A DNA stretch of 27,913 bases from Candidatus Baldrarchaeota archaeon (GTDB lineage: Archaea; Asgardarchaeota; Baldrarchaeia; Baldrarchaeales; DXJG01), in NCBI GenBank assembly GCA_019056805.1, contig DXJG01000014.1, positions 1 to 27,913 of the forward strand, written 5' to 3'. Positions 1,422 through 22,356 of this stretch are shown piece by piece. Made by a program: the position numbers and the translations under genes. Within the stretch, counting starts at the first letter, position 1; each line of letters begins with the position of its first letter. The notes under the pieces are model-generated. The model was not told the origin of the DNA. It saw only the letters and a program-made list of their open reading frames with translations, and searched no databases.

Positions 1422-2243
1422 TTGAATATGTATGTTGTTCCTCCATCTAAAGTAACCAAGAAAGACATAGAGATGGTGATACAAAAAGCGTTAAAAAATG
1501 TTAGAGAAGAAGGTTATAAGCTGGTTGATGTCTCATTTTTGTGGATGCCATATTTTAGGGTGGAATGTATTTATCAAGATGAAATTGGGATTTCTGAGCA
1601 GGGTGAAACATCTTTAAATGCTATGCTCTACAGTGATGTTTTGAGTAGCGAAGATTTGATGGTTCTTTTTAGACCGAAATTTCTGAAATATGGGTTTAAG
1701 ATGTTGAGAGAGATCCGTATTGAGGAGTCTTTGAGAAAGTATAGGGAGATAGAGGGTTCAGTTGCAGATGTAGATTTCCGCAAGGTTAGTGGTAAGTTAC
1801 TTACTTTAATAAAGAATATAAAGGAAAGTCTTGCTGAGTTGAAGCCTAAACTTGAAACAGAACAGGATTTCGGTGTTGCTAGACTTTTTGTTGGTTCGCG
1901 ATACGCTTATGAAAGATTAACTTCAAAGCTTCATCGAGAAGGTTTTGAAGCATTGGAAAAAGAGGTTGCTCATTATAGATCTATGGAAATATTGATAAAA
2001 CTGTTTTTAGACTTGGATGTTTTACCTCAAACACTTCAAATACGTAAAAAAGAAGAATTTTACTTCCCATATCTGCTAATTCGCGTAGAAAAAGAGGAAG
2101 AAGGAGAAACTCAAAGAAAATATCTTTTTGTAGAACTGGTAAAGCAAGGAAAAATCTTTAAGAAATTCTATGAAGATTCTATTTTTACGCGTTTAATTGA
2201 GAACTACAAAGAACTACAGCAAATAATGGAAAACTTAACCTAA
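1422..2243 (+). CDS. Hypothetical protein (about 273 aa; start may be ATG 1428)
   Basis: Long ORF with two similar motifs, LWMPYFRVE and FYFPYLLIRVE; no family confidently recognised. Confidence 0.75.
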   Translation: MNMYVVPPSKVTKKDIEMVIQKALKNVREEGYKLVDVSFLWMPYFRVECIYQDEIGISEQGETSLNAMLYSDVLSSEDLMVLFRPKFLKYGFKMLREIRIEESLRKYREIEGSVADVDFRKVSGKLLTLIKNIKESLAELKPKLETEQDFGVARLFVGSRYAYERLTSKLHREGFEALEKEVAHYRSMEILIKLFLDLDVLPQTLQIRKKEEFYFPYLLIRVEKEEEGETQRKYLFVELVKQGKIFKKFYEDSIFTRLIENYKELQQIMENLT

Positions 2244-2424
2244 TGTTAATATATTAGTGTAAGTGAAATCTGAATTTCGTAATTGAAAAACGATCATTTT
2301 AGGAAAGTATTATCATGTGTGAACTAATCAAATATTCTACTATTTGATGGATGCTTCATTCTGAGGAAAATAAAGTATTGTAAGGTTTGAATTTCCAGAA
2401 ATGGAAAATTTTGTCACCGTTATC

Positions 2425-2441
2425 AAGATTAACTTATATAT
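2425..2441 (+). promoter_or_regulatory. TATA promoter of the PLP-enzyme/kinase/RLP operon
   Basis: TTATATAT at 2434-2441, about 25 nt upstream of AGGTGA. AGGTGA is probably the RBS for a TTG start at 2475. Confidence 0.55.
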
Positions 2442-2465
2442 TTGTTTATTGTAATAATTTTTTAG

Positions 2466-3860
2466 GTGATAATTTTGGCGGAGGAGATTAAACCGTCAGT
2501 ATTATCAAAAGAAGAGATTGAAACTTTTCTAACAAAAATTTCGCCGGAGGAAATAGAGAAAGCTAAGAAAATTAGCCTTACTCCATTGAAAGAAACAATA
2601 TTATTTAAAGGTGAGCCGAGTGGAGCTATCATTATGGATATTGATGGAAACAAATATATTGATTGTACTGCTCAAGCTTGGACTTTAAATATCGGATATT
2701 GCCAACCTGATGTTCTATACGCAGTATTAATGCAAATGAAGCGGCTTACTCATGTAAGATACGGATATCCTACGATTCCAAGATTAAAACTTTTGTTGAA
2801 ACTTTCAGAAATAGCTCCTGGAAACTTAAAGCGAGTATCTTTTAATAATGAAGGAGGAGGTATGGCAATAGAGGCAGCAATGAAGCTAGCGATGGTAAAC
2901 ATTAAGAAAATCGGTGCACATACTTTCATAACGTTTTGGAGAGGTTACCATGGTGCTACTCTTTCCACAATCCCAGCAAGTATGATTATAAGAGTAGTTA
3001 CAAGATTTCCAGGCTTTGGACTCGATAGATTTGTCAAATTACCTTACCCCTATTGTTATAGATGTCCTTTTGGAGAAAAAGAGTATCCAGATTGTGGACT
3101 TGTTTGCATTTCCTTCATAGAAAGAGCAATAACTGAAGCTGTAAGTGCTCCAGTTGTCGGTATGATAATAGAGCCTATGCAAGGGCCTGGAGGCCAGATT
3201 CCTGCACCTCCTGAGTTTCTTAAGGAGCTTAGAAGGATATGCAATGAGAATAACATTTTTCTGATTTATGATGAGGCGCAGGTTGCTTTTGGAAGATGTG
3301 GAAGAATGTTTGCAGCAGAATATTACAATGTTATTCCAGATATCATAGCGCTGACAAAAGCTTTGGGTGGAGGATTCCCTATAGGAGCAATTCTTGCAAG
3401 AGAAGATCTAAAAAACTTTACGGAGGCTGAGGAGCATACTACTTTTGGAAGTAATCCAATAATGTTTGCCGCTGCGCTTGCAAGTATTGAAGTTATTCAG
3501 CGATTAAATCTTCCGAAACGTGCTGAGGAGATGGGTAATTATATTATGGGTCGAATACGTGAGATGCAGGAAACTTATGAAACAATAGGGGATGTTAGGG
3601 GTGCAGGGCTCTTTATTGGGGTTGAATTGGTGAAAAATAGGAAAACAAAAGAACCGTTAGATTTCTTGAAGGTAGATATGTTTTTGAAACAGGCCTTTAA
3701 GAGAGGGGTAATTTTTGATGTCAGTATGCCGATAATATCGGAAAGGGGACAAATTATTAGGAATGTGATAAAAATTAAACCTCCGCTTACCATAACACGT
3801 GAACAGGTAGATAAGGCTTTAGAAGTTTTTGAAGAATGTTTGAAAATGGTTTCTAAGTGA
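2466..3860 (+). CDS. Class III PLP-dependent enzyme (aminotransferase-III fold) with phospho-lyase-like motifs
   Basis: Motifs YIDCTAQAWTLNIGY, GYHGAT, IIEPMQGPGGQI, IYDEAQVAFGRCG, DIIALTKALGGG (PLP Lys), TTFGSNP, GDVRGAGLFIGVELV, NVIKIKPPL. Confidence 0.9.
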   Translation: MIILAEEIKPSVLSKEEIETFLTKISPEEIEKAKKISLTPLKETILFKGEPSGAIIMDIDGNKYIDCTAQAWTLNIGYCQPDVLYAVLMQMKRLTHVRYGYPTIPRLKLLLKLSEIAPGNLKRVSFNNEGGGMAIEAAMKLAMVNIKKIGAHTFITFWRGYHGATLSTIPASMIIRVVTRFPGFGLDRFVKLPYPYCYRCPFGEKEYPDCGLVCISFIERAITEAVSAPVVGMIIEPMQGPGGQIPAPPEFLKELRRICNENNIFLIYDEAQVAFGRCGRMFAAEYYNVIPDIIALTKALGGGFPIGAILAREDLKNFTEAEEHTTFGSNPIMFAAALASIEVIQRLNLPKRAEEMGNYIMGRIREMQETYETIGDVRGAGLFIGVELVKNRKTKEPLDFLKVDMFLKQAFKRGVIFDVSMPIISERGQIIRNVIKIKPPLTITREQVDKALEVFEECLKMVSK

Positions 3861-5008
3861 TAGGGAGGGTGAAGTCAACGGGAACAATTCCTTCCAGCTT
3901 TTTTAAGCCGTATGTGAGAGAAACTAAGAGGTATATGGAAGATGAAGTTCAGAAGTATGGTTCCCGTATTTTGAATATGGTGTGGCAAAGTGAAGATTTT
4001 ATTCGACTTATGGGGAATGAAAATCCCTATGGACCTTCACCCAAAGTTATAGATGCATTAAAGAAAGCTACTCAACGTATCAATAAGTATCCTAGTCCTA
4101 CTTATGCTGATCTTGTTGAAAAAATAGCTGAATATGCTTCTGTAGAACCTGAAAACATACTTTTAGGAGCAGGCTCGCTTGAAATAATGGATGCAGTTTT
4201 CAGAGCATTTTTAAATCCTGGAGATAACGTTATTTTGTCAGCGCCTACATATAAACCCTATATTTTGAGAATAAAGGTGTGTGGTGGAAATTCGACATTA
4301 ATTCCAATGAAGAAAAGCGAAAACGGATTTTCGAGAGATATAGAAAAAATATTAGAAGCTATAAATTCGAAAACAAAAGCCGTAGTTTTTATGAATCCTA
4401 ATAATCCGACAGGAATACCTTTGACCCGAGAAGAACTTGAAAAAGTTTTAGACAAACCAATACTTATAGTAATAGATGAAGCATACTATGAATTCTGTGG
4501 GAAAACTTTTGCGCCACTTATAGAGGATAATGAAAATATAGTAGTGATAAGAACTTTATCAAAGGCTTTTGCTATGGCGGGATTAAGAATTGGATATGCA
4601 ATTGCTGATCAAAGTATCGTGGACTATATTAGTCGTGTACAATTGCCTTTTAGAGTTACAGAACTCACTGTCCATGCGGCAATAGCTGCTTTAAATGATA
4701 TGAAGTATGCAAAGGAAACTATAAGAAAAATATTGGATGAGAGGGAAAGACTTTTCAACGAATTGTCAAAAATGGAAGGTTTAAAACCTTATCCGTCAGC
4801 GGCAAACTTTATTCTTGTTAAAGTTACTCATGAAAAGTATTCTACAGAAAAACTGTCTTCTCTACTTTTAGGTAAACGTATAATAGTTAGAGGATTTACG
4901 GGAACGCCGGGACTTGAAGATGGAGGCTATATACGTATAAGTGTTGGAACTCGTGAGCAAAATGATAAACTTATTTCTGCTCTTAAATCCATTTTAGGTG
5001 GTGACTAA
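3857..5008 (+). CDS. Histidinol-phosphate aminotransferase-like (class I/II) PLP enzyme
   Basis: Motifs GNENPYGPSP, NPNNPTG, IDEAYYEF, RTLSKAFAMAGLRIGY, SAANFIL, YIRISVG. GTGA overlap with the upstream gene. No his genes nearby, so the true substrate is uncertain. Confidence 0.88.
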   Translation: MIGRVKSTGTIPSSFFKPYVRETKRYMEDEVQKYGSRILNMVWQSEDFIRLMGNENPYGPSPKVIDALKKATQRINKYPSPTYADLVEKIAEYASVEPENILLGAGSLEIMDAVFRAFLNPGDNVILSAPTYKPYILRIKVCGGNSTLIPMKKSENGFSRDIEKILEAINSKTKAVVFMNPNNPTGIPLTREELEKVLDKPILIVIDEAYYEFCGKTFAPLIEDNENIVVIRTLSKAFAMAGLRIGYAIADQSIVDYISRVQLPFRVTELTVHAAIAALNDMKYAKETIRKILDERERLFNELSKMEGLKPYPSAANFILVKVTHEKYSTEKLSSLLLGKRIIVRGFTGTPGLEDGGYIRISVGTREQNDKLISALKSILGGD

Positions 5009-6563
5009 ATTGTCTGAAGAATATATTTTAACGTATGATATTGGAACTGGAAGTACAAAAGCAACTCTTATCAGTATTGATGGAAAAATAGCTGCATCTT
5101 CTACGGAAGAATATGGATTAAGTCATCCACATCCAGGATGGGCTGAACAAGACCCTGAAGACTGGTGGAGAGCTGTTGTTACAACTACGAGAAATATTCT
5201 TCAAAAAAGTAAAATTTCCCCGAAAGACATCATAGGGACATCTTTTGATGCTCAAATGATTAATGTTATTCCAGTAGATAAAGAGGGAAAACCTCTTAGA
5301 CCATCTATAATATGGATGGATGCTAGGGCTGGTGAAGAGGCAAGGGAACTTGAAGAACGGGTATCTATAATTTTAATGGTTTCTGCAGGTCTTTTACCTA
5401 TGTTATCAGCAAAAGATGTGACTCCACGTATACTCTGGTTAAAGAAGAATGAACCGCGTGTTTTTGAGAAGACCTATAAGTTTCTTGACTGCAAAGACTA
5501 TCTAATATACAAGCTTACTGGTAAATATGCTACTGATTGGACATGTGCTTTTCTTACTGGTATGTTACATGTACGTGATAAAAAATGGTGTGAAGAATTT
5601 CTTGAATATCTTGGCATAAGTGTTGATCAGTTACCGGAACCACTAAAAACCACGGATATCGTGGGAACATTAACTGATGAAGCTGCTAAAGCTCTTGATC
5701 TTCCTAAAGAAACTCCGGTAATATGTGGAGCGGGAGATGTACCTGCCACCGCGTTAGGATCTGGTGCGGTTGGAAATGGAGAGGCACATGTTTATATAGG
5801 GACTTCTTCATGGATAGGAGTTCACTTAGACCCTGAAATGTACACTTTGGATCCTGATACGGGAATGGGAACTATTTTTTCAGGGGATCCTGAAAAGCTT
5901 CTTCTTACGGGGGAAATGGAGAACTCTGGAAATTGCTATAGATGGTTTAGAGACGAACTTGCATATAAAGAAGTAGAGGAAGCCAAAAAGGCAGATAAAG
6001 ATCCATATTATGTCCTTGACCAAGAAGCTTCAGAAATACCGCCTGGATCGGATAAATTAATATTTTTGCCGTGGATGCTTGGAGAAAGAGCACCACTACA
6101 AGATCATACAGTTCGTGGAGGTTTCGTAAACTTATCTCTTAGACATACACGTGCACATATGATTAGAGCAGTTCTTGAGGGAGTTGCATATCATTTAAGA
6201 TGGATTGTAGATTGTGTAGAAAGGCTTGGATTTAATATAGAATGGTTAAACGCGTGTGGCGGAGGAGCACAAAGTCCTCTTTGGATGCAAATCCTCGCCG
6301 ATGTTACCGGTAAAGAAATACGGCGGGTACATGCTCCACTTGATGCTCCTTCACTTGGTGTTGCAATGATTGTTGGAGTTGGATTAAAAGTTTACGAAGA
6401 CTTTGAAACAGCTGCTAAGAAGCTAATCGGGATAGAAAAAGTGTTTACACCTAATGAAAATAATAGAGGTGTATATGAGAAGCTTTATGGTTGTTTTAAG
6501 GAAATCTATAGGAATCTTAAGGATGTATTTTATGATTTAAATGAAAAGGAGGGAGAAATATGA
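4998..6563 (+). CDS. FGGY-family carbohydrate kinase (xylulokinase-like)
   Basis: Motifs YDIGTGSTKA, EQDPEDWW, IWMDARA, GAGDVPATALG, YIGTSSW, LPWMLGER, RAVLEGVAY, GGGAQSPLWMQILADV. Overlaps the upstream stop. Confidence 0.92.
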   Translation: MVTKLSEEYILTYDIGTGSTKATLISIDGKIAASSTEEYGLSHPHPGWAEQDPEDWWRAVVTTTRNILQKSKISPKDIIGTSFDAQMINVIPVDKEGKPLRPSIIWMDARAGEEARELEERVSIILMVSAGLLPMLSAKDVTPRILWLKKNEPRVFEKTYKFLDCKDYLIYKLTGKYATDWTCAFLTGMLHVRDKKWCEEFLEYLGISVDQLPEPLKTTDIVGTLTDEAAKALDLPKETPVICGAGDVPATALGSGAVGNGEAHVYIGTSSWIGVHLDPEMYTLDPDTGMGTIFSGDPEKLLLTGEMENSGNCYRWFRDELAYKEVEEAKKADKDPYYVLDQEASEIPPGSDKLIFLPWMLGERAPLQDHTVRGGFVNLSLRHTRAHMIRAVLEGVAYHLRWIVDCVERLGFNIEWLNACGGGAQSPLWMQILADVTGKEIRRVHAPLDAPSLGVAMIVGVGLKVYEDFETAAKKLIGIEKVFTPNENNRGVYEKLYGCFKEIYRNLKDVFYDLNEKEGEI

Positions 6564-7891
6564 GTAAAGAAGAAATTAAGGAAAAAGATGAATATGTATA
6601 TTTAGATACCCCAGAAGCATTGCCAGAAGGAGTAGATCCAGAAGAATATATTATAGCGACCTACTATGTATCGTTGCCATTTGGACTTGATATAATAAAG
6701 ATATCTCAAATGGCAGCTATAGAACAAAGTACAGGAACTTGGGTGCCAGTTCCGGGGGAAACTCCTGAGGTGCGAAGGAAACATGTGGCTAGAGTGATAG
6801 CAATATATGAAGTTCCACAATATGAATGGCATGTTCCCAGCGATGTAAAATGGCGACAATACATTGTTCAAATAGCGTATCCAATTATCAATCTATGTGG
6901 ATATCAAATTCCAATGTTGCTATCTACGGTTGCAGGTAATATTCTTAGTGGAGGTAAAATTAAGCTTTTAGACTTATGGTTCCCTAAGAATTACCTTAAG
7001 GGATTTAAAGGACCAAAATTTGGAATAGAAGGGGTTAGAAAGCATCTTGGAGTTAAAGAGAGACCTCTGCTTAACAATATGATAAAGCCATGTACAGGTT
7101 ATCCACCAGAAGTAGGGGCTCGTCTTTTCTACGAGGCTGCGCTGGGAGGAGTAGATATAGTGAAAGACGATGAACTTCTTGCAAATGCAGACTTTAACAA
7201 GGTTGAGGATCGTGTTGTGAAATATATGGAACTGGCAGACAAAGCATATGAAGAAACTGGAGAAAAAACAATGTATACTCCTAACATTACGGATACGCCG
7301 CAGAAAGCATTAGAACTTGCAGAGAAGGTCATAGAGCTTGGCGGCAACGGTCTTATGATAAATTATTTGACTGCTGGATTTGAAGTTATGAGAACATTGG
7401 CTGAGGATCCAAGTATAAACGTTCCAATTCTTGCACATATGGACTTTTCCGGAGCTCTCTACGAAGACCCATACTCTGGCTTATCATCAACACTCGTATT
7501 AGCAAAGCTTCCAAGACTTACTGGAGCAGACATTCTCGTATATCCAGCACCTTACGGAAAAGCACCATTTTTGAAAGAAAGATACATTATGATTGGAAAA
7601 ATGCTCAGATACCCGTTCCTCCACATAAAACCAACATTTCCAATGCCAAGTGGAGGAATAATTCCAAACATAGTTCCGAAAATAATTGAAGACTTTGGAA
7701 ACGAAGTTATAATTGCGGCTGGCGGTGCAATTCATGCGCATCCAATGGGACCTGTTGCTGGTGGAAAAGCATTTAGACAAGCTATTGAAGCAGCAATGAA
7801 AGGCATTCCTCTAAAAGAATATGCACAGGAACACGAAGAACTTAAAGTAGCATTAGAAGCTTGGAAAACTTCGAAACTCCTACCCATCTAA
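6560..7891 (+). CDS. RuBisCO-like protein (Form IV RLP)
   Basis: Motifs IEQSTGTW, AGNIL, MIKPCTG, DIVKDDELL (carbamate Lys and Mg ligands), LAHMDFSG, PYGK, PSGG, AAGGAIHAHPMG. Lacks the RuBisCO K177, R295 and H327 equivalents. ATGA overlap with the kinase gene and a GGAGG RBS. Confidence 0.93.
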   Translation: MSKEEIKEKDEYVYLDTPEALPEGVDPEEYIIATYYVSLPFGLDIIKISQMAAIEQSTGTWVPVPGETPEVRRKHVARVIAIYEVPQYEWHVPSDVKWRQYIVQIAYPIINLCGYQIPMLLSTVAGNILSGGKIKLLDLWFPKNYLKGFKGPKFGIEGVRKHLGVKERPLLNNMIKPCTGYPPEVGARLFYEAALGGVDIVKDDELLANADFNKVEDRVVKYMELADKAYEETGEKTMYTPNITDTPQKALELAEKVIELGGNGLMINYLTAGFEVMRTLAEDPSINVPILAHMDFSGALYEDPYSGLSSTLVLAKLPRLTGADILVYPAPYGKAPFLKERYIMIGKMLRYPFLHIKPTFPMPSGGIIPNIVPKIIEDFGNEVIIAAGGAIHAHPMGPVAGGKAFRQAIEAAMKGIPLKEYAQEHEELKVALEAWKTSKLLPI

Positions 7892-7919
7892 ATTTTCCTT
7901 TACCTCCCTTTTTATTTTG
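7892..7919 (+). terminator. Pyrimidine/T-rich archaeal terminator of the RLP operon
   Basis: Pyrimidine-rich tract with several T runs directly after the TAA stop. Confidence 0.55.
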
Positions 7920-7992
7920 TACCAAAAAGAAGAAATAAATTTCTTGTCCATTTAATGAATCCTTGACTTTTTATCACGGTGTTGTAATAGGC

Positions 7993-8006
7993 TGACAAAT
8001 TTGTCA
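7993..8006. promoter_or_regulatory. Perfect 14-bp palindrome, candidate transcription-factor site upstream of the GYD gene
   Basis: TGACAAATTTGTCA, lying 13 bp upstream of AGAAAAC-TTAAATA (BRE/TATA, TATA at 8020-8026). Confidence 0.5.
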
Positions 8007-8058
8007 TTTATAAGAAAACTTAAATATTATGGTTAGTAGTGATTAAAAGGGTGAAATT

Positions 8059-8352
8059 TTGCCTATTTATATAACTCTTGGCAAGTTTACTCAAGAAGAG
8101 ATTACAAAGATAAAAAAGTCGCCGGAACGGTTGGAGGCAGCTCGAAAAGTGCTCAAGTCAGTTGGAGGGGACATCAAGGAGTTCTACTATACCTTGGGAC
8201 AATACGATTTTGTTGTAATATCTGAAGCTCCAAGCGATGAAGCGATGATGAAGGCTTTGTTTATTATCTGCAGTAGGGGGACGGTAAGGACAGAGACACC
8301 AATAGCGATCCGGGCTGAAAAAGGAGCAGAAATTATTGAGGAGCTGCCTTAA
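8059..8352 (+). CDS. GYD domain-containing protein
   Basis: MPIYITLGKFT...GGDIKEFYYTLGQYDFVVISEAP...RGTVRTET fits the GYD family pattern. TTG start after a GGTGA RBS. Confidence 0.85.
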   Translation: MPIYITLGKFTQEEITKIKKSPERLEAARKVLKSVGGDIKEFYYTLGQYDFVVISEAPSDEAMMKALFIICSRGTVRTETPIAIRAEKGAEIIEELP

Positions 8353-8609
8353 GGCTACCCAGTAATGTCTGTCAATCTTTTCCTCTTCTTTATTTGTCTC
8401 TATCATACTATTTATGAAAGCTATTAGATTGATAAACACTAATCGAAATTGGACAATTACATTCTGTAACTCTGTATCTAGAATTCAAAATTTTTCTAAA
8501 GATCAGTTAAAGTTTCAGCATACTTCTGCAACAGCTAGTTTCTCTAGGTTGGAGGTGAAGGTTCCTACTAAGTTTAGACAGTTTGATTTGAGTACATAAT
8601 ATCAATATC

Positions 8610-9431
8610 TTACTGGTTTAGGCATGTACCCCTACCAGTCTGAATCTTTTTCTCTTCCTCTTTTATTTTGTTCCAAAAATGAAGAAATAAGTTCTTTGCC
8701 CATTCAACGAATTCTTGACTTTCACTGTAAAAAGTAGTTCCATAGTCCATTTTTCCGTCTAGGAATGGTAGATTTAGTTCTGCGGATCTATTATCTACTA
8801 AAAGGACGAAGGGTATTTTGTCTAGATACTTTACCTCTATGTTCTCAGTTATTTTACTGGGTAGTGTTGACAGTATTTCTTTTATTTTTTCTTTTAGGGT
8901 ATTTGGGAATATTAATCTGATTTTTAGTCCTCGTTCTGCACATTTTTTAAATGGTTCTATGAATGCAGATAAAATTCTTGGACTTATAACCCATGAGAAT
9001 TTTTCTGCTTTTTCTAATCTTTGCATTGTGAGGTTAAATCCTTCAATAGTTCCCCCTATCACAGAAATATTTTTCATTCGTGAAAAATCAAATAGGAAGT
9101 GAAAAGGGATCACGGAGATATCGTGTTCAAGTAGAATATCTCGATAGCTTACAGAAAAGTTGAGAAGTGAAAGTATGTGATTTAATATGTGGCCGATTGA
9201 TGTAAGTGAGTAAGTATTATCAGCATGTTTTAGAATTATTCCTGAAGATGATAGTTTTTTCAAGTGGCGAGAAACTTCTGAGAATGATAGATTTGTATGT
9301 TTTACAATTTGAGACGGTTTCTTTAACCCGTTATAAATCGAAAGAAAGACCCTAAGCCTATTAGGGTTGCTTAATACTAGCATTAATTCGCAAATATTGT
9401 TAACAGTATTATCCATATAATCACCGAACAT
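8610..9431 (-). CDS. Archaeal transcriptional regulator, ArsR-like winged HTH plus DUF1724-type sensor domain
   Basis: N-terminal LSNPNRLRVF...SEVSRHLKKL...YSLTSIG wHTH. C-terminal LEHDISVIP, KIRLIFP, DGKMDY and FVEWAKNLFLHFW, typical of this family. Confidence 0.8.
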   Translation of the reverse strand: MFGDYMDNTVNNICELMLVLSNPNRLRVFLSIYNGLKKPSQIVKHTNLSFSEVSRHLKKLSSSGIILKHADNTYSLTSIGHILNHILSLLNFSVSYRDILLEHDISVIPFHFLFDFSRMKNISVIGGTIEGFNLTMQRLEKAEKFSWVISPRILSAFIEPFKKCAERGLKIRLIFPNTLKEKIKEILSTLPSKITENIEVKYLDKIPFVLLVDNRSAELNLPFLDGKMDYGTTFYSESQEFVEWAKNLFLHFWNKIKEEEKKIQTGRGTCLNQ

Positions 9432-13413: not shown

Positions 13414-14298
13414 TTATTGTTTAAGCAGGTTACTTAATGGTTCTTTTAAACGCCAGTCTTCAAAGCCATATGCTAATCGAAAGTTTCGCGTAACTTCCAT
13501 TAAATTTTCTCCTAAAACCTTTATTTTGCTTGGATCGTATATTCCGAGGGCCTTTTTACTCATTAATTGTAGGAATTTTGCTTTTCTAGGGTCTATACCC
13601 ATGACAAGGCAACCTATCGTGTCTGTTGCAACTATATCTAAGCCAGCAATAATCAAATCCATTTTTACTGGATCTCCATAAATTTCATCTCTTTCTGAAC
13701 CTAGGGTGCCATCTATGATGTTTATATGCGGCTTAACTATGCTTGCTAGATCTGCAAGTTTTTCGTGTATATTTGTGTGCATTATTCCTTTGGGCCAAAT
13801 GCAGCCCATTAAGTTTTTTGCGCATAAAGTTACTCCTGCAATATGGTGAATTTTAAGTTTAGCAACATTGATGATGCAATCTGCCTCCAAAATTGTTTTA
13901 GCAATATTTACTTCTTTCAAAACATAGGCATCAGGAACTTTTATCGTAACAAATCTGTCTTGATTTAAATTAACAAGTTTAATATCGTATTTATCAGCCA
14001 ATTTTGTTAGACCTGTAATTTCAAAAGCTCTATCAGCAGTATCTAATGATAATCCACCCTCAGCAACGGTAATGTCTTCTATACCGAGATTTTTAAGCCA
14101 TACGACTAATGCCTCAATTATTTTTGGATCTGTGACATGAACATATTTGGGTCCCTCTGCAATAATATAATTCGGCTTAATAAGAACTTTTTCATCTTTA
14201 ATTACAGTTTTTTCAGCATCTATCAATTTTAATGCTTTTTCAACATCTTTTAAAGGATCAAAACATTTGACAACAGCAACCTTAACACTATTACACAT
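13414..14298 (-). CDS. DUF362 family protein
   Basis: Motifs VLIKPN, TDPKIIEALV, VAEG, INVAKLKIHHIAGVTLCAKNLMG, IIDG, DIVATD. Confidence 0.85.
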   Translation of the reverse strand: MCNSVKVAVVKCFDPLKDVEKALKLIDAEKTVIKDEKVLIKPNYIIAEGPKYVHVTDPKIIEALVVWLKNLGIEDITVAEGGLSLDTADRAFEITGLTKLADKYDIKLVNLNQDRFVTIKVPDAYVLKEVNIAKTILEADCIINVAKLKIHHIAGVTLCAKNLMGCIWPKGIMHTNIHEKLADLASIVKPHINIIDGTLGSERDEIYGDPVKMDLIIAGLDIVATDTIGCLVMGIDPRKAKFLQLMSKKALGIYDPSKIKVLGENLMEVTRNFRLAYGFEDWRLKEPLSNLLKQ

Positions 14299-14398
14299 TT
14301 TATCAAGCGCCCCTTCTAAAGTAACACGTAATCATGTAAAATGTTCTCAGGATACGAAAATACAGTTTTACTAAATGTTAGTGGTTTAAATTAGATGG

Positions 14399-15853
14399 TT
14401 AAACTATTGGTGTTAAGTTTACTTCGTATTTTCCTTCCTCCACATATATGCTTGGGTGGAGATTTGGGGTATATGGTATGATTCCATATGTTAAAACTGT
14501 TCCTTCATGGGCATCAATTACAAAATGTGTATCTGCAAGGTGATTTAAAGCATCAAGTATCCTTTGGCCATATTTAACTAAGCAGAGTAACACGTCACCA
14601 GCCTGTTTTGCATCAATAACTAGAGAACCAATTATAGATGAAAGTTTATCTTCACCATATATTTGTTGCAAAGTATCTAGACCTATAACCATTAAAGTAG
14701 GTTTACCTATCGTTTCGATCTCAGAAACCATTGTTCTGATTCTTTCATAGTCTTCAAGTATGTTTTCTCCCATTAAATTCGATATATGAGGGTCGTATAC
14801 TTCGCTTTCATTGTAAACAATTTTCTTTGTAAAGTCAACCAATCTAACTAGTTCATTAAATCTCTCTGGTGAAACTAGAGGAACAAGTTTTCTTAACATG
14901 TTTTTAAAAGCTCTTGCAGGAATTCCCGCGGGTGGAATTATAAATGCAGGTTTTTCATTTAGAATTTGGTTTATAATTGTGGGCAGATACATATAATCAT
15001 ATCTGTCTCCTACCTCTCTCCGTATTTCAATTATGTTTAGACTACCGCTTCGATAACCATTCCCCAAAATCTTATCAAGGTACTTTATTCCAGTAGATAC
15101 GAAGTTTTCGGCACTTTCAAGCTGACTAAATGTTTTAAATTCGAGGTTAATAACTTCGTCATAGAAGGACTGCATTTGGAAACATAAAGTTCTAAATTCT
15201 CCATCAACCAGTGTAAATATTGGAACCGGGTTTTTTATTTCTTTTCCTCTAATTTTAATGATTTTTAGATATCTTATTAGTCTTCCATTTTTAGATTTCT
15301 CAAGTTCAACTATTCCATCTACAATATAATCAAGAGGAGTTACGCAGATGTTTTCTGATACAAAAATTACATGGCTCTTGGTGTCTCTCGATATTTCAAG
15401 TATTGCTTCTTCAAGAGAAAAGTCGTCGTTTGGTATGTGTAAATCTGATTTTAAGGCTTCAACGCTGTCAATGACTATTATTGCAGATTTTTCAGTCTTT
15501 TTTATAAGTGAATATAGTTGCTGTAGGAAGACTGGTTTATCAGAAAATTTAAATGTAACAGCGAAATCTTCAGATGAAACAACGGTGGTATTGACTGCAT
15601 CTAAGATGTTGTTTGGAGATAAGAAATCTTTAATAAAAGGATAATCTGTGCAAAGCTCTTCGGGTGTAACTCTTGTCGTTATGTAAAAAGGAACATACCC
15701 ATTTTTCAAAGCTTTGCATAGGGTTAAGGTGAAAAGAGTCTTTCCAGTTCCTGGTTCACCTTTAACTAAAAGTCTAAAACCTCTTAATCTTTTAAAGGTT
15801 GTTAAAATTTCTTTAGGAATAGGATAAGGATCGAGTACCATTATGCTCCCCAC
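14399..15853 (-). CDS. RAD55/KaiC/GvpD-like RecA-superfamily ATPase with two domains, the second degenerate
   Basis: Walker A GEPGTGKT and Walker B IVIDS, plus DYIVDGIVEL and KIRG. The second domain starts STGIKYLDKILGNG but has no Walker A. Confidence 0.8.
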   Translation of the reverse strand: MGSIMVLDPYPIPKEILTTFKRLRGFRLLVKGEPGTGKTLFTLTLCKALKNGYVPFYITTRVTPEELCTDYPFIKDFLSPNNILDAVNTTVVSSEDFAVTFKFSDKPVFLQQLYSLIKKTEKSAIIVIDSVEALKSDLHIPNDDFSLEEAILEISRDTKSHVIFVSENICVTPLDYIVDGIVELEKSKNGRLIRYLKIIKIRGKEIKNPVPIFTLVDGEFRTLCFQMQSFYDEVINLEFKTFSQLESAENFVSTGIKYLDKILGNGYRSGSLNIIEIRREVGDRYDYMYLPTIINQILNEKPAFIIPPAGIPARAFKNMLRKLVPLVSPERFNELVRLVDFTKKIVYNESEVYDPHISNLMGENILEDYERIRTMVSEIETIGKPTLMVIGLDTLQQIYGEDKLSSIIGSLVIDAKQAGDVLLCLVKYGQRILDALNHLADTHFVIDAHEGTVLTYGIIPYTPNLHPSIYVEEGKYEVNLTPIV

Positions 15854-15913
15854 CTAATCACTTATGGCAAACATTATAGAATATTACGATATTTTGCTAT
15901 AAATTTTTTGAAA

Positions 15914-16115
15914 TAGACGGTATTTTAAATTTATTTCTTTTTTCTAAGATAAAAATTATAATAAGGCAAGAGAAGGGAGAATACCATTAATAAATGATAT
16001 CATTGATTATCGTGTTGCGTGGAAAATTATTTATTGAACTTTTTAGTTTATTCTCAAACTGAATTTAAATTGCAGTTCCCTTAGAATACTATTTTTTTAA
16101 AACAAATACCGTCTA
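15914..16115. repeat. 12-bp perfect inverted repeat pair in a divergent promoter region
   Basis: TAGACGGTATTT (15914-15925) and AAATACCGTCTA (16104-16115). Confidence 0.5.
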
Positions 16116-16200
16116 GCAACATAAATATGAATTTTTAGCCTTTAACAGACTTTTTAGAAATGATTCATTGAAATGTATCGAAATATTTATAACACGTTGA

Positions 16201-16226
16201 TAATACTTTTTTACAAAAAAGTATTA
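16201..16226. promoter_or_regulatory. NikR-like operator over the start site of the Ni/Co ECF operon
   Basis: Perfect inverted repeat TAATACTTTTTT-AC-AAAAAAGTATTA (TAATAC-N14-GTATTA), just downstream of TATA TTTATAA (16186-16192) and upstream of the RBS. Confidence 0.65.
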
Positions 16227-16241
16227 CTAGGGTGATGAGGG

Positions 16242-16898
16242 TTGCATATTCCTGATGGATATCTAGACCCGTGGGTTCTGGCGATTTTCTTTATCTTAAC
16301 GGCAATTATGTGGTTTTTAGCATTTAGAAAGGCAAATAAAGTAATAGAAGACAAACATATCCCATTGTTCGCTGTGTTGACCGCAGCGGTCTTTGCTGCG
16401 CAAATGATAAATTGGCCAATAGGACCAGGAGGAACAACCGCACATTTAGTTGGAGGAGCATTAGTTGCAATTTTCCTAGGAGCATACGGCGGACTTATCT
16501 CAATGACAGTTATACTTTTAATACAAGCGCTTCTCTTCGGTGACGGTGGAATAACTGCCCTTGGCGCAAATATTTGGAACATGGGAGTTGTTGAATGCTT
16601 TGTCGGCTATTATCTCTATAAAACAATTAGCAAAGCTCTAGGCGATACATCACGAGGAAAAATTGTAGGCGCATTTTTCGGAGGATGGATAGGAATAACA
16701 CTTGCAGCATTCTTCTGCGGATTACAAATAGGAATCTCAACAATATTTCCCTATGACATTGCTGTTTCAGTCCCAGTTATGACCATATATCACGGCCTCC
16801 TAGGAACCATAGAGGGACTTATCACAGCATTCGTAGTCGGCTATACCCTTAAGGTGAGACCTGACCTCTTGGAATTACCGAAAATAGATCCTCTGTGA
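16242..16898 (+). CDS. nikM: Ni/Co ECF transporter S component (NikM/CbiM)
   Basis: N-terminal metal-binding MHIPDGYL (Nik-type; CbiM usually has MHIMEG), plus AQMINWPIG, TTAHLVGG, QALLFGDGGITALGAN, H..LGTIEGLIT. Confidence 0.88.
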   Translation: MHIPDGYLDPWVLAIFFILTAIMWFLAFRKANKVIEDKHIPLFAVLTAAVFAAQMINWPIGPGGTTAHLVGGALVAIFLGAYGGLISMTVILLIQALLFGDGGITALGANIWNMGVVECFVGYYLYKTISKALGDTSRGKIVGAFFGGWIGITLAAFFCGLQIGISTIFPYDIAVSVPVMTIYHGLLGTIEGLITAFVVGYTLKVRPDLLELPKIDPL

Positions 16899-16909
16899 GG
16901 TGAAACAAA

Positions 16910-17209
16910 ATGAGCGTATTCGTCGAATATATTAAAAGTCGTTGGGTTCTTCTTAGCATAATCGTCATGATAGTAATTGTACTTATAAGCCCTCTATTCG
17001 GATATGCTTATGAACCCATGGACTACGTTGTTGAACAGTTTCATGCCGTTGAACAACAGATTTATGAAGCTCCAATGCCAGATTACATTATTCCTGTACT
17101 CGGAGAAACAGCGATCAGTGGTATACTGGCGGGTCTTATTGGTCTCTTTATTACATTGTTTGTCTGTCTTGCACTAGGCTATGTGCTAAGGGCTCGTAGA
17201 AAAGAATAA
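16910..17209 (+). CDS. nikN: NikN-like / PDGLE-domain auxiliary membrane subunit
   Basis: Two TM helices flanking APMPDYIIP; located between the M and Q genes. Confidence 0.75.
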   Translation: MSVFVEYIKSRWVLLSIIVMIVIVLISPLFGYAYEPMDYVVEQFHAVEQQIYEAPMPDYIIPVLGETAISGILAGLIGLFITLFVCLALGYVLRARRKE

Positions 17210-17242
17210 CCTTATTATTCCTTTATTCTTTCATTATTTTAT

Positions 17243-18106
17243 TTGGTGGCTGAGATTCAAATGCGTAGAATGATAGAAGCATCAACTAAGGAAATTTTGA
17301 AGATATTTAGAGATACTGTGCTATGTGAAAGATATACAAATATTGAGGGCCTTTTTCAAAGATTGGATCCTCGCGTAAAATTTCTTGCAACTATTGCTCT
17401 TATAATAACGGCTGTAGCGTCCGGAAAAATTATAATTCAGCTTGCAATATTGGTATTGACTTTTTTGTTAGCTCTAATTTCTAGAATAAGTTTCAAGTTT
17501 TTCATTGTGAGAACTTTCTTGTTTATACCACTATTTGCTGTAGTAATAGCTCTTCCCTTGCCTTTCATAATAAGTGGCGAAATTGTTGCATCATTTAAAA
17601 TTAATGGTATGTTAATTATGGTTAGTAGGGAAGGCTTATGGGAGATGTTAATTTTTGTGTTGAGAGTATGGGCATGTGTTTCTCTCTCCATCCTTCTTAT
17701 ACTTACAACTAAATGGAATAGTTTATTACATGGATTATCAAAACTTCATGCTCCTCGTCTTCTCATTGTAATTTTAAACATGACATATCGCTACATCTAC
17801 TTTTTCACAGATATGTTGTATAAAATGCTTATAGCAAGGGAAAGCAGGTTAACAGGTCCCGTAGGTACGCTTGAAGCCATAAAGGGGGGAGCTTCAGCTT
17901 TAGGCTCGCTTTTTATAAGGGCTTATGAAAAGGGTGAAAAAATATATTTAGCAATGAAATCACGTGGATATAACGGAGAAATGAAAACAATGGATGACCT
18001 TAAAATTCATAAACTTGACATTATATTCTCCGTACTTGTCGGCGCAATCATAGTCATGATGTTGGTTATGCAGATGTTTCATGAATTTCCCTTTCCTGTG
18101 TTTTAG
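17243..18106 (+). CDS. nikQ: Ni/Co ECF transporter T component (NikQ/CbiQ)
   Basis: Motifs LFQRLDPRVK, TYRYI, ARESR, LFIRAYEKGEKIYLAMKSRGY. Confidence 0.88.
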   Translation: MVAEIQMRRMIEASTKEILKIFRDTVLCERYTNIEGLFQRLDPRVKFLATIALIITAVASGKIIIQLAILVLTFLLALISRISFKFFIVRTFLFIPLFAVVIALPLPFIISGEIVASFKINGMLIMVSREGLWEMLIFVLRVWACVSLSILLILTTKWNSLLHGLSKLHAPRLLIVILNMTYRYIYFFTDMLYKMLIARESRLTGPVGTLEAIKGGASALGSLFIRAYEKGEKIYLAMKSRGYNGEMKTMDDLKIHKLDIIFSVLVGAIIVMMLVMQMFHEFPFPVF

Positions 18107-18109
18107 AGG

Positions 18110-19003
18110 ATGATAAAAGTGCGGCACACGGTATTTGAACTTGAAAACATAACACACATTTATCCGGATGGAACATTGGCGCTCCAAGACGTTTCTCTCA
18201 AAGTTTACGAAAAAGAGAAAGTCGCTGTTTTAGGTCCTAATGGTGCTGGAAAATCTACACTTCTCATGATAATGGATGGACTTATTAAACCAACTAAGGG
18301 TACTGTTCGATTTCTTGGTGAAGAAGTTAAGTTTAATGATGATAAGTTTCTTTATGAGATGAGGAAAAAGGTTGGACTTGTTTTTCAGGATTCTGATGCT
18401 GCTCTTTTTTCCTCAACCATATGGGAAGATGTAATTTTTGGTCCACTTCATATGGGGCTTCCAAAAGAAGAGGTTATTAGGAGAGGTGAAGCTGCTCTAC
18501 AACTTTTGGGAATAGAGCATTTAAAAGATAAGCCTCCGTTTCAGTTAAGTGAGGGGGAGAAGAGAAAAGCTGTAATAGCCTCGGTTTTGTCAATAAATCC
18601 TGAGATTCTTTTACTTGATGAGCCTCTCATTAATCTTGATGCAGCAACTCAAACGATGATCGTAAATCTTCTGGAATCGATGCACAAAGAAGGAAAAACC
18701 ATTGTTACAGCGACTCATGACATAAATGTTGTGCCTTTGATCGCGGATAGAATTATTGTACTTAATAAGACGGTTATTGGCGAAGGCAGTATTGAGGAAG
18801 TGTTTTCTAATGTCGATTTAATGAAGAAAGCAAATCTACATCCACCAGTTATTACCGAACTATTTGTTAAACTTAAAGAATACGGAATCTCAGAACCTTC
18901 TACAAAAATTCCACTAACTGTTAATGAAGCCATCAACTATATACTAAAATTACTAAATGGAACCAGCAAAAATGTCAAAAATGGGAAAAAAGAGCAAACA
19001 TAA
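18110..19003 (+). CDS. nikO: Ni/Co ECF transporter ATPase (NikO/CbiO)
   Basis: Walker A GPNGAGKST, Q-loop VFQD, signature LSEGEKRK, Walker B LLLDEP, H-loop ATHD. Confidence 0.92.
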   Translation: MIKVRHTVFELENITHIYPDGTLALQDVSLKVYEKEKVAVLGPNGAGKSTLLMIMDGLIKPTKGTVRFLGEEVKFNDDKFLYEMRKKVGLVFQDSDAALFSSTIWEDVIFGPLHMGLPKEEVIRRGEAALQLLGIEHLKDKPPFQLSEGEKRKAVIASVLSINPEILLLDEPLINLDAATQTMIVNLLESMHKEGKTIVTATHDINVVPLIADRIIVLNKTVIGEGSIEEVFSNVDLMKKANLHPPVITELFVKLKEYGISEPSTKIPLTVNEAINYILKLLNGTSKNVKNGKKEQT

Positions 19004-19024
19004 GAGATTGTTAAACTAAATTTG

Positions 19025-19795
19025 TTAAGTTTTCTTTCGCCAGTAGGCCCAAGCTCTACCGAGATAAAAACCGGATGGACCAAACATCGTTCTTGGTTTG
19101 CAAATTATTTCTCGAATTTCAAGGCCAATTTGAGGATCAAAGAGAGAATCTGAATACGAAGGTTTAACTACAATTGCTGTATCTAGTCCTCTTTCTGTTC
19201 CACCCATAGAAACAACTTCCTTATCAATTGGAATCACACCTGCATCCGCGGCGGTTACAGCTGAAAGAACAGAAACTTTTAGCCCAGGACAAAATGGATA
19301 AAAGGTTTCATTCATAACGATTTTTGGAGAACTAACTCCAAGATCATGTTCCATTGAACATTCAATATCAGCACCCATATCTGTAGCTGTAACTATGGTT
19401 ACACCAAGTTCTTCAAGTTTCTTTTTCATAGGTCTTCCAGGAAGAAATGGTACTTTCTTTAATCCTTCTTTTTTCCATTTTCTTATTTCTTCCGCCATTT
19501 CTGGAATATCAATCCAGTAACGAGAAGATTCCTTCTCAAGTTTTTTAGAAAGCTTTTCAACATCGTAATAACCGCCAGCCCTAAAAGTAACACAAATGAT
19601 CTTAAAGTTTTTATCTTTTGCAGCTTCAGCGGTCTTTAAAGCACTCCTACCCGTAAGAGATGAAACAACAATATGTTCAATGTTTAATTCTTCGACTCTT
19701 TCTAAGGCAAGTTTTATGGTCATATCAGTATTAACCAGCCCTGGACGCTCAAAATAAAAAATCTTTCTCTCAATTACAGACATTATCACCACCAA
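19025..19795 (-). CDS. Pyruvate kinase C-terminal-like alpha/beta protein (MTH1675-like family)
   Basis: Motifs YFERPGLVNT, HIVVSSLTGRSA, VCVT-like ICVTF, GLKV...AADAG, GG...GLDTAIVVKP, EIICKPR. Confidence 0.8.
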   Translation of the reverse strand: MVVIMSVIERKIFYFERPGLVNTDMTIKLALERVEELNIEHIVVSSLTGRSALKTAEAAKDKNFKIICVTFRAGGYYDVEKLSKKLEKESSRYWIDIPEMAEEIRKWKKEGLKKVPFLPGRPMKKKLEELGVTIVTATDMGADIECSMEHDLGVSSPKIVMNETFYPFCPGLKVSVLSAVTAADAGVIPIDKEVVSMGGTERGLDTAIVVKPSYSDSLFDPQIGLEIREIICKPRTMFGPSGFYLGRAWAYWRKKT

Positions 19796-20100
19796 ATAAG
19801 GGTTTCAGCTATGTTAATAAATCTGTTATGATAAATAAAATTTTACTCAATAATTAGGTAGATATTACATAGTTATAAATCATTTAAGCCAAGCAACTTG
19901 CCAAATAAAATGTGGAAAAGTCATTCATTAAAATTCAATACTCTGACAAAAGGCTCTTCTACCCAACTTTATTACACAGAAAATTCCGGAAAAATTATAT
20001 ATCTGTAACTACGCTACAAAATATGTACACATTTAACACATACTGGATGATGTCTTCCTCATAGCGTAAGATATAAGGCGCTACAATATATACAACAAAA

Positions 20101-21396
20101 ATGAGGGGAGTGAAACATATGAAGAAAACAATTTCAGCTTGTCTTATACTAATATTCATAGGTGCCATGCTTATTCTACCAACATCTGCAACAGCCTTTA
20201 CAACCCCGACGACCATGACAAGAAGCTTAGTAAGCAGTAATTTCTATGTTGAAGCAACACAAAAAGATCCGTTTGCTGACATCACTGACATTACTCCCTT
20301 TCCCGAAAAACAATGGACTTTCATGGTATATATGGCTGCTGATAACAACCTGGACCCTGCCGCTCTTGATGATATAAACGAAATGGAAATGGCAGGATCA
20401 ACCGGAGATGTTAATATTATTGTTTTGCTTGATCGCTGGGACGAAAAAGCGCCGTCAGGGACATGGGTCTATTACATACAACCCGACACAGATCCAGATG
20501 ATATAAATTCTGAACTAATTGGAGAGTTGGACGAAATAAATATGGGTGATCCATTTATATTACAATGTTTTGTTCGATTTGTGACTACGTATTTTCCAGC
20601 GGAGAATTATGGTTTGGTGTTGTGGGATCATGGACATGGTTGGTTTGGAGTTTGCTGGGACTGGACAGATGGAGACTACTTGGATATAGATGAAATTCAA
20701 TGGGCACTGACTGATTTGCCAAAGTTGGCTCTTATTGGTTTTGATGCTTGCTTGATGTCAATGATAGAAGTGGCTTACGATTTTGTTGATCTAGCCGATG
20801 TTATGGTTGCTTCAGAGGAATATGAGCCATGGGATGGCTGGCCTTATGATATGTTTTTAGTGGACTTAGTGAATAATCCATGGTGGACGGCGAAGGAGTT
20901 AGCAAGGGAGATAGTTGATGATTATATAGAGTCGTATAGTACGGATGGTTTTCTACGTGCCTTTGTAACGATGGCAGCCATTGATCTTAAAGAGTTACCC
21001 ACGCTGGTAGAGTTGATCGATGAGCTTGCAGTGTTCTTAATAGATCATTTATCCGAATATTATGGTGTAATTACGAAGGCTAAGAACTCTGCGGATAGAT
21101 ATCCGTTCGGCTTCGCGCCCAGAGGTTCTTTCATTGACCTATATCACTTTGTCAGTTTACTAGAAACGGATAATGGAAACTTAAAACTCCTAGTCGAGAA
21201 AATCTTGAATACATGGGAAGATGTTGTGATTGCTACCAAGTCTTATAATAAGATGCATAAACATGCTCTAGGCTTAACCATATATTTCCCAGTAAATGCT
21301 AAGCTTGGATACTACCCAGAAAAGTATTCAACAGCGGGACTCGACTTCGTGGAAGAAACATACTGGAATGAATTTCTAGCTGCGTACTTTGGTTAA
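20101..21396 (+). CDS. Secreted clostripain-family (C11) cysteine peptidase
   Basis: Signal peptide MKKTISACLILIFIGAMLILPTSATA (likely start ATG 20119), WTFMVYMAADNNL, catalytic WDHG and FDACLM. Confidence 0.88.
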   Translation: MRGVKHMKKTISACLILIFIGAMLILPTSATAFTTPTTMTRSLVSSNFYVEATQKDPFADITDITPFPEKQWTFMVYMAADNNLDPAALDDINEMEMAGSTGDVNIIVLLDRWDEKAPSGTWVYYIQPDTDPDDINSELIGELDEINMGDPFILQCFVRFVTTYFPAENYGLVLWDHGHGWFGVCWDWTDGDYLDIDEIQWALTDLPKLALIGFDACLMSMIEVAYDFVDLADVMVASEEYEPWDGWPYDMFLVDLVNNPWWTAKELAREIVDDYIESYSTDGFLRAFVTMAAIDLKELPTLVELIDELAVFLIDHLSEYYGVITKAKNSADRYPFGFAPRGSFIDLYHFVSLLETDNGNLKLLVEKILNTWEDVVIATKSYNKMHKHALGLTIYFPVNAKLGYYPEKYSTAGLDFVEETYWNEFLAAYFG

Positions 21397-21501
21397 AAAT
21401 GGCAACAATCCACCTATAACATTAAACCACCTTATTTTTTACATTTTAGAGATGTTAAATTAAAAATAGTTGAAATAAGTGACAATTATGGTTAAAATTG
21501 A

Positions 21502-22290: not shown

Positions 22291-22356
22291 ATGAATCCTC
22301 CACTACTATCTGTTCAATTTATAACTTGTCAGATAATTAAGTAATTTAGGTGTATT

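Follow-up and report, generated by a model that had tools for sequence, protein, structure and literature searches.

Why should an Asgard archaeon run a relative of RuBisCO alongside a kinase of the FGGY family and two enzymes that depend on pyridoxal 5′-phosphate (PLP)? The question is raised by positions 2466-7891 of contig DXJG01000014.1 of Candidatus Baldrarchaeota archaeon (assembly GCA_019056805.1), a contig analysed here from position 1 to 27,913 and called the window throughout. Its host is a metagenome-assembled genome (MAG) of 1.92 Mb, 91% complete, in which the window is contig C4. The genes in question code for a class III aminotransferase-family PLP enzyme, a paralogue of the histidinol-phosphate aminotransferase HisC, an FGGY kinase and a form IV RuBisCO-like protein, or RLP (Table 1). 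A sequence-only reading of this DNA had seen in them a pathway for an amino-polyol or an amino-sugar. This interpretation is partly supported. The operon is real, it belongs to a widespread pathway for which we found no published description, and it is built from known enzyme families. The window makes a contribution of its own, a specialised HisC paralogue, which narrows the class of possible substrates.

A conserved company of three enzymes

Three further contigs of Baldrarchaeota (L001, L002 and L041) have the identical four-gene order, with protein identities of 81-94%, and the arrangement is therefore not one of chance. For a wider view we took the neighbourhoods of the 80 closest RLP loci in a scan of a genome collection (the best 80 only). 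These loci span Bathyarchaeia, Hadarchaeales, Asgard archaea, Anaerolineae, Thermoflexales, Dehalococcoidia, Actinomycetota and Caldisericota. Counts were made on the 42 of them that extend at least 3.5 kb on either side of the RLP gene, a neighbour being any gene within 8 kb. An FGGY kinase is present in 40 of the 42. The class III enzyme has an orthologue, at 45% identity or more, in 16, and a saccharopine-dehydrogenase-like protein, recognised by Pfam, is there in 20. One or other of these amine enzymes accompanies the RLP in 36 loci, and both together in none (0/42). Class III and saccharopine-dehydrogenase-like enzymes are both known for the conversion of an amine to a carbonyl, and the either/or pattern is what would be expected if two unrelated enzymes did the same job. 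The kinase follows the RLP even where the genes are not linked: the 10 of 21 Asgard genomes that have an RLP orthologue also have an FGGY match of at least 39% identity, while no such match was found in 10 of the 11 genomes without it. The orthology of these Asgard kinases was checked by a tree.

The conserved core is thus made of the kinase, the RLP and one amine enzyme; the HisC paralogue is absent from the modules of most lineages. The sequence-only reading would have fallen if homologous RLPs never kept company with such enzymes; they do so. The presence of two PLP enzymes, however, is specific to Baldrarchaeota. That the three enzyme types belong to one pathway is, we think, highly probable. 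The kinase-RLP pair, nearly always with an amine enzyme, is met again in many uncultured anaerobes and probably marks a metabolic route not yet described: searching the literature returned no publication on a kinase-RLP-amine-enzyme module, and wider searching gave only generic mentions.

Other neighbours recur. They comprise a class II aldolase that resembles FucA or ribulose-1-phosphate aldolase, and not MtnB, in Bathyarchaeia and in one other archaeal lineage (L095/L096); transporters that adjoin the module in several lineages (of the major facilitator superfamily, of the LIV and Opp types of ATP-binding cassette systems, each with its binding protein, and an APC permease); an aldehyde:ferredoxin oxidoreductase; and, now and then, genes of beta-oxidation. 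Acyl-CoA dehydrogenases are found near the module in four loci (L007, L061, L072 and L076), and in a Jordarchaeales genome an RLP orthologue (66% identical; L114, G010:C1, 3729-6072) adjoins a 3-hydroxyacyl-CoA dehydrogenase. These fatty-acid-type neighbours may be there by chance, or may hint at a fatty tail on the substrate.

Two loci deserve a mention for other reasons. A Hodarchaeota contig (L051, about 2100-9270) carries two back-to-back kinase-RLP pairs with a saccharopine-dehydrogenase-like gene between them; its second RLP shares no more than 40% identity with that of the window, and the whole looks like duplicated or diverged modules. A MAG labelled Tepidanaerobacter acetatoxydans (L172, 7347-12638) has in a row an FGGY kinase, an RLP (60% identical), a class III gene of 492 amino acids and a TetR regulator. 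There are cultured strains of this species, a possible experimental handle.

The RuBisCO-like protein

By far the closest named protein to the window RLP is AF_1587 of Archaeoglobus fulgidus (UniProt O28685). It is without assigned function, so that the match names a lineage, not a reaction. The same protein is the best Swiss-Prot structure match of the AlphaFold model of the RLP (pLDDT 93.6), with 62% identity over 425 residues, a TM-score of 0.94 and a root-mean-square deviation of 1.0 between the two predicted structures; MtnW proteins come next, at 36-39% identity. Judged by similarity, AF_1587 lying outside our tree, the RLP belongs to the 'IV-Aful' lineage of form IV. This subgroup (Tabita et al., 2007) is given without function in PMC10173188. 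The clade comprises some 2,600 clusters at 90% identity (E below 1e-100), the members of which are named 'RuBisCO large subunit C-terminal-like domain-containing protein' by the NCBI pipeline and MtnW enolase by JGI.

Is the latter name justified? MtnW, or YkrW, the 2,3-diketo-5-methylthiopentyl-1-phosphate enolase (structures 2oek from Geobacillus kaustophilus and 2zvi from Bacillus subtilis), is indeed the nearest characterised family, at 290 bits. Aligned to 2oek, the RLP shows the KDDE carbamate and metal motif and the equivalents of K175 and H294; it also resembles MtnW in having one phosphate site only and a distal pocket of apolar character. By analogy its chemistry is probably of the same kind, an Mg2+-dependent enolisation of a 1-phospho-2-keto compound. 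The catalytic general base of MtnW is Lys98 (G. kaustophilus numbering). In the window RLP this position is Asn127, as in RuBisCO, where it is Asn123. Unlike MtnW, the RLP also keeps the equivalents of E60 and K334, and its partners are an FGGY kinase and amine enzymes. Its scores fall below the cut-offs of both MtnW equivalog models (NF007095, 362 bits against 409; TIGR03332, 330 against 514), and likewise below those of the NCBIfam models for form III and for OiaX (for the latter, NF042437, 185 bits against 700). With Lys98 missing and both equivalog scores too low, we rejected MtnW as an identity for the RLP; that it is something else we regard as very probable.

A tree of 166 sequences, with relatives taken from the collected loci and without the RLP references of Rhodospirillum rubrum, Chlorobium tepidum and A. 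fulgidus, places the window RLP in a clade of 70 members (support 0.90) with a nearly invariant signature. The position of RuBisCO N123 is Asn throughout this clade. MtnW makes a separate clade (support 0.85), marked by the changes of N123 to K, E60 to G and K334 to S. Intermediate sequences run back towards form III. The sequence-only reading had staked its case on the RLP not grouping with a characterised clade, and this has held, the nearest lineage being the function-less one of A. fulgidus and the lysine of MtnW being absent.

The same genome offers a convenient yardstick, as it encodes on another contig, C16, a form III RuBisCO of the same fold, about 46-48% identical to the RLP. We compared the two at 19 classical RuBisCO active-site positions. 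The RLP retains 14 of them (E60, T65, W66, N123, K175, K201, D203, E204, H294, K334, S379, G381, G403 and G404) and changes five (T173M, K177C, R295M, H298S and H327L), whereas the form III enzyme has K177, R295, H298 and H327 unchanged. To judge from these residues, the metal and carbamate site, the enolisation residues and the site for the first phosphate are intact in the RLP, and small or apolar side chains have taken over the site for the second phosphate. Keeping the first site and losing the second in this way suggests that the substrate is a monophosphate whose tail is non-polar.

The form III gene (C16, 265-6257; L092) adjoins genes for ribose-1,5-bisphosphate isomerase and for a ribose-phosphate diphosphokinase resembling PRPP synthase, with xylulokinase and fructose-6-phosphate aldolase/transaldolase genes convergent to them. 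Its content identifies this set as the archaeal pentose-bisphosphate route, distinct from the RLP operon, where the neighbours are a kinase and PLP enzymes. With a separate form III gene and its isomerase on C16, we rejected the RLP as the CO2-fixing or nucleoside-pathway RuBisCO of this cell.

Not all relatives of the RLP are alike. In an Atabeyarchaeia genome (L116, G015:C1:2712783-2713631) the frame of the orthologue has only about 300 amino acids, matching residues 15-299; it is possibly truncated or a pseudogene. That genome, despite the short frame, retains a class III orthologue and a HisC paralogue next to a kinase. The surroundings of more distant RLPs told us little: in Anaerofustis one such RLP stands alone, next to a sugar-binding regulator.

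A HisC that has probably left histidine

The HisC paralogue scores 345 bits with TIGR01141, for a cut-off of about 276-277, and is the only protein of the genome to pass it. Should it then be taken for the histidinol-phosphate aminotransferase of this organism? Neither hisD nor hisB (imidazoleglycerol-phosphate dehydratase) was found in the 91%-complete genome. In a relative from the same order, G004, hisD adjoins a hisC only 30% identical to the window paralogue, and elsewhere there is a 56%-identical orthologue of that paralogue, placed directly 5′ of a 66%-identical FGGY kinase. The paralogue-kinase pair is present again in G014, in G015 and in two further Atabeyarchaeia/Promethearchaeati records, at 38-45% identity, and the kinases so paired fall within the RLP-linked kinase clade of the tree. 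Among the matches listed, the next-best relatives of the paralogue, some 70 of them, are ordinary HisCs of Dehalococcoidia encoded beside hisD and hisB. In G004 the pair lies away from the RLP (L097, G004:C42, 23-11422), flanked by an APC amino-acid permease, a hexapeptide acetyltransferase, a flavin amine-oxidase-like protein and two GT28-type glycosyltransferases.

Paralogues and HisCs were aligned to Escherichia coli HisC (1fg3), and the residue numbers used here were matched to the E. coli sequence. Tyr20, Asn157, Asp184, Tyr187, Lys214, Arg222, Arg322 and Arg335 are invariant in the kinase-linked paralogues and in the HisCs of his operons alike. Position 85 is where they part: L, T or M in all seven kinase-linked paralogues (Leu in the window), Asp in 66 of 72 his-operon HisCs. 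We take it that Arg322, Arg335 and Tyr20 of the E. coli enzyme hold the phosphate of the substrate and that Asp85 contacts its imidazole. If these roles are right, the paralogue still takes a 2-amino-alkyl phosphate, not histidinol phosphate. It shares with HisC the PLP residues and the phosphate-binding ones, and differs from it in having Leu for Asp85 and an FGGY kinase, rather than hisD or hisB, as a neighbour. By analogy its reaction is probably of the same type, and from these residues we propose that it is an amino-alcohol-phosphate aminotransferase. The earlier suggestion that a HisC-type enzyme acts here on an O-phosphorylated amine thus gains support, from the his genes that were not found, from the retained phosphate-binding arginines, from the loss of Asp85 and from a kinase adjacency conserved in Asgard archaea.

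The class III enzyme and the kinase

The class III enzyme is below every NCBIfam cut-off. Its closest solved structures are an omega-aminotransferase of Pyrococcus horikoshii (7vno) and amino-acid racemases from archaea or lactobacilli; no known lyase is among them. Compared with E. coli GabT it retains the PLP lysine, and has A, P and K in place of R141, E211 and R398. In GabT, R141 and R398 presumably bind the carboxylate and E211 acts as a switch; we verified the positions in the E. coli sequence. Nearly all aligned RLP-linked orthologues, from archaea and from Chloroflexota, have Ala or Ser, Pro or Ala, and Lys at these three places, where the other class III paralogue of the genome, on contig C6, has Arg, Glu and Arg. 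The missing residues imply that the enzyme is not an ordinary 2-oxoglutarate-dependent omega-transaminase. Its residues suggest that it may bind a phosphate ester, or catalyse an elimination or an epimerisation. The claim that the PLP enzymes exchange amine and carbonyl is therefore unsafe for this one.

The kinase is likewise below the cut-offs of the models for XylB (TIGR01312, 337 bits against 380) and gluconokinase (329 against 649). The RLP-linked kinases make a single clade in the tree, outside which lies the true xylulokinase of the genome (on C16, TIGR01312 425 bits). With this XylB present, we rejected xylulokinase as the function of the operon's kinase.

A proposed route and its rivals

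How could these activities be put together? We propose that the operon serves to process a small molecule that bears an amino alcohol as its head group, with the amine on the carbon that adjoins a terminal CH2OH. The chances of this scheme, with its steps as follows, we put a little short of even. The FGGY kinase would phosphorylate the terminal hydroxyl beside the amine-bearing carbon. The HisC paralogue would then make a ketone of that carbon, which neighbours the phosphate ester, much as HisC does with histidinol phosphate; elsewhere this step would fall to the class III or the saccharopine-dehydrogenase-like enzyme. The product would be a 1-phospho-2-keto(-3-hydroxy) compound, like a ketose 1-phosphate, with an unphosphorylated and probably apolar tail. 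A RuBisCO-type pocket with only its first phosphate site would suit such a compound. The RLP would bind it by this site and by its Mg2+/carbamate site and remove the proton from C3, the enediolate being resolved as an isomerisation or an epimerisation. In other lineages the FucA-like class II aldolase would finally split the product into dihydroxyacetone phosphate (DHAP) and an aldehyde. The class III or saccharopine-dehydrogenase-like enzyme would handle the same amine or a second one, by transamination, elimination or epimerisation. The polyol or sugar substrate of the sequence-only reading does not fare well in this scheme, as the apolar distal pocket of the RLP is a better match for an amino alcohol whose tail is non-polar.

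Several points weigh against the amino-alcohol scheme. The order of its steps comes from the enzyme families alone. No class II aldolase was found in this genome, leaving the fate of the RLP product here unexplained, and two amine enzymes in one operon are not cleanly accounted for. Chloroflexota and Bathyarchaeia have no HisC paralogue, so it is the Asgard genomes that carry the argument for the head group, and in those two groups the amine enzymes may work ahead of the kinase. The lack of hisD and hisB is a statement about a 91%-complete MAG, and one genome of the same genus (9% contamination) does have hisD. The roles given to the HisC and GabT residues are carried over from the E. coli enzymes, and the apolar distal pocket is read from substitutions, with no ligand-bound model.

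The strongest rival that we can name, and yet an unlikely one, is a variant of the salvage of 5′-methylthioadenosine (MTA) or 5′-deoxyadenosine, in which the RLP, like that of R. rubrum (IV-DeepYkrW type), would take 5-methylthioribulose 1-phosphate or 5-deoxyribulose 1-phosphate from MtnP and MtnA, while the aminotransferases served a later step such as the regeneration of methionine. The remark of the sequence-only reading that there are no mtn genes in the window is correct for the window, and the genome carries mtnP and mtnA outside it, the MTAP and MtnA proteins scoring above their cut-offs (283 and 417 bits). As neither a class II aldolase/MtnB nor an MtnK (MTRK) was found in the 91%-complete genome, 5-methylthioribulose 1-phosphate is left there without a known consumer. 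This molecule is moreover a ketose 1-monophosphate with an apolar tail, a match for the kept and the lost phosphate sites of the RLP, the nearest characterised family of which is MtnW. MtnP and MtnA make it, however, without any FGGY kinase, the very gene that accompanies the RLP in nearly all the loci; methionine salvage leaves the alternation of two unrelated families of amine enzymes unexplained; the arginines for holding amino or keto acids are absent from the class III enzyme; and the RLP lacks Lys98. A phospho-lyase route is an improbable alternative too. There the kinase would phosphorylate a hydroxyl beside an amine, and the class III enzyme, as a lyase of the ETNPPL/PbfA type, would expel phosphate or ammonia and leave a carbonyl compound, while the RLP worked on another phosphate, of the sugar type, derived from that substrate. 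Class III lyases that act on 1,2-amino alcohols are known (PMC8154272), and the RLP-linked clade has lost the three GabT residues that the ordinary paralogue of the genome retains. The PbfA model does respond, with 264 bits, but this is far below its cut-off of 525, and the nearest solved structures are those of an omega-aminotransferase and of racemases rather than lyases. Eliminating the phosphate would also strip the group that the conserved first phosphate site of the RLP needs, and an oxidoreductase resembling saccharopine dehydrogenase, as the substitute elsewhere, fits the oxidation of an amine to a carbonyl better than an elimination.

Could the route run the other way? A ketose would first receive a phosphate, the RLP would isomerise it, and the PLP enzymes would introduce the amine to make an amino-polyol phosphate, as a head group for a lipid or a glycan, or as a solute. 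Aminotransferase and isomerase steps are reversible, and after the HisC-kinase pair of G004 come the acetyltransferase, the flavin amine-oxidase-like protein and the two glycosyltransferases described above. Yet the importers, the class II aldolase and the aldehyde:ferredoxin oxidoreductase that adjoin the module in several lineages give it a catabolic look, and there is no conserved carrier or nucleotide-activation gene, so that we see little chance for a biosynthetic direction. Still less can be said for a housekeeping explanation, where the HisC-like gene would be an incidental histidinol-phosphate or aromatic aminotransferase and the unit would reduce to a kinase and an RLP acting on an ordinary ketose. 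It is true that the paralogue passes an equivalog cut-off as the best HisC-like gene of its genome, and that the modules of most lineages work without it. Against this, the genome yielded neither hisD nor hisB, G004 has both a his-operon hisC and the paralogue, four or five Asgard lineages keep the kinase adjacent even where identity has fallen to 38-45%, and Asp85 is replaced in all kinase-linked paralogues while it is kept in most his-operon HisCs. We hold this explanation to be very improbable.

A more daring idea must be added, a long shot by our own estimate. The RLPs of the IV-Aful lineage could form or cleave carbon-carbon bonds on a monophosphate, a 1-phospho-2-keto-3-hydroxy-alkane being carboxylated to give 3-phosphoglycerate and a carboxylic acid. 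The idea comes from the residues: all those that serve enolisation and the addition of CO2 (E60, N123, K175, the carbamylated K201, H294 and K334) are kept, and K177 and the three residues of the second phosphate site and loop (R295, H298 and H327) are lost. If true, this would be a second natural class of substrates for RuBisCO-type carboxylation, and would explain why no aldolase is needed here.

Comparison with known systems, and what is at stake

Besides MtnW, form III and HisC, two other systems invite comparison with the amino-alcohol scheme. The fucose and rhamnose modules (FucK/FucA and RhaB/RhaD) associate an FGGY kinase with a class II aldolase, as do the modules of Bathyarchaeia and of L095/L096. 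The FucA-like aldolase of the latter suggests a ketose 1-phosphate intermediate, cleaved to DHAP and an aldehyde. The likeness stops there: the module is without a sugar isomerase and has an RLP and an amine enzyme in addition, and the present genome lacks the aldolase. In the pathways for apiose, OiaX (3-oxo-isoapionate-4-phosphate decarboxylase) and OiaC are RLPs that act on the monophosphate of a keto-sugar acid, again within a catabolic cluster that contains a kinase. The apiose RLP pathways use a DUF1537 kinase and are not known to involve an FGGY kinase or a PLP enzyme.

The A. fulgidus-type RLPs received their lineage name in 2007 and still await a function. Thousands of its members carry in databases the label of a methionine-salvage enolase, which their active site contradicts. 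With a kinase as partner, an either/or amine enzyme and a specialised HisC paralogue, the list of candidate substrates is now narrow enough to make a bench screen realistic. The clade stands between form III RuBisCO and MtnW in its sequence features, and its reaction therefore bears on the way in which RuBisCO chemistry diversified. Finally, the carriers are abundant anaerobes of the subsurface and of hot springs (Bathyarchaeia, Anaerolineae, Dehalococcoidia and Asgard archaea), where the pathway may matter for the turnover of carbon and nitrogen.

Architecture of the locus

The four open reading frames fill the region on the forward strand, their ends overlapping or abutting, as the sequence-only reading had described them. 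Its GTGA (3857-3860, between the class III gene and the HisC paralogue) and ATGA (6560-6563, between kinase and RLP, with AAGGAGGG just 5′ of it) junctions are where it had put them. The overlap of 11 nucleotides that it saw between HisC paralogue and kinase (4998-5008) holds only if the kinase starts at GTG 4998. An alternative start, TTG 5010, lies 6 nucleotides past AGGTGGTGA and 1 nucleotide past the TAA stop of the preceding gene; these signals make it at least as likely, and the genes would abut rather than overlap. Upstream of the class III gene AGGTGA (2461-2466) could be a Shine-Dalgarno sequence for another possible start, TTG 2475. The TATA-like box and the T-runs that had been taken for promoter and terminator are both present in the sequence, the T-runs at 7905-7918, after the RLP stop codon (7889-7891). 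This arrangement suggests that the four genes are co-transcribed as one operon.

Table 1. Genes and putative signals of the operon and its candidate regulator (window coordinates)
Feature	Position	Strand	Basis or remark
TATA-like box TTATATAT, putative	~2433-2440	+	~25 nt 5′ of GTG 2466; read from sequence
Class III aminotransferase-family PLP enzyme, 464 aa	2466-3860	+	Pfam PF00202 (Aminotran_3), E 1e-85
HisC-family paralogue, 383 aa	3857-5008	+	Pfam Aminotran_1_2, E 9e-67
FGGY-family kinase, 521 aa	4998-6563	+	Pfam FGGY_N (PF00370) and FGGY_C (PF02782)
Form IV RuBisCO-like protein (RLP), 443 aa	6560-7891	+	Pfam RuBisCO_large_N (PF02788) and RuBisCO_large (PF00016)
T-rich tract, candidate archaeal terminator	7893-7918	+	3′ of last stop; read from sequence
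ArsR/FilR1-type winged-helix regulator, candidate operon regulator	8610-9431	-	Pfam HTH_5 and FilR1_middle; convergent

The gene for the ArsR/FilR1-type regulator is also found 3′ of the operon in L001 and L002, and its position makes a tie with the operon possible. Directly 5′ of the operon, and at the same place in L001 and L002, is an open reading frame of 273 amino acids (1422-2243, forward strand), for which a profile search gave no family match. No tRNA and no Rfam family was found in the window. Further along, the region 13414-23613 groups a DUF362 gene, a metal-uptake set (CbiM, CbiN-like, CbiQ and an ABC ATPase) and LarB-like (AIRC) and LarC-like (Ni_insertion) genes. It comprises on the reverse strand, at 14399-15853, a GvpD/KaiC-like P-loop ATPase of 484 amino acids, near which no further gas-vesicle genes were seen.

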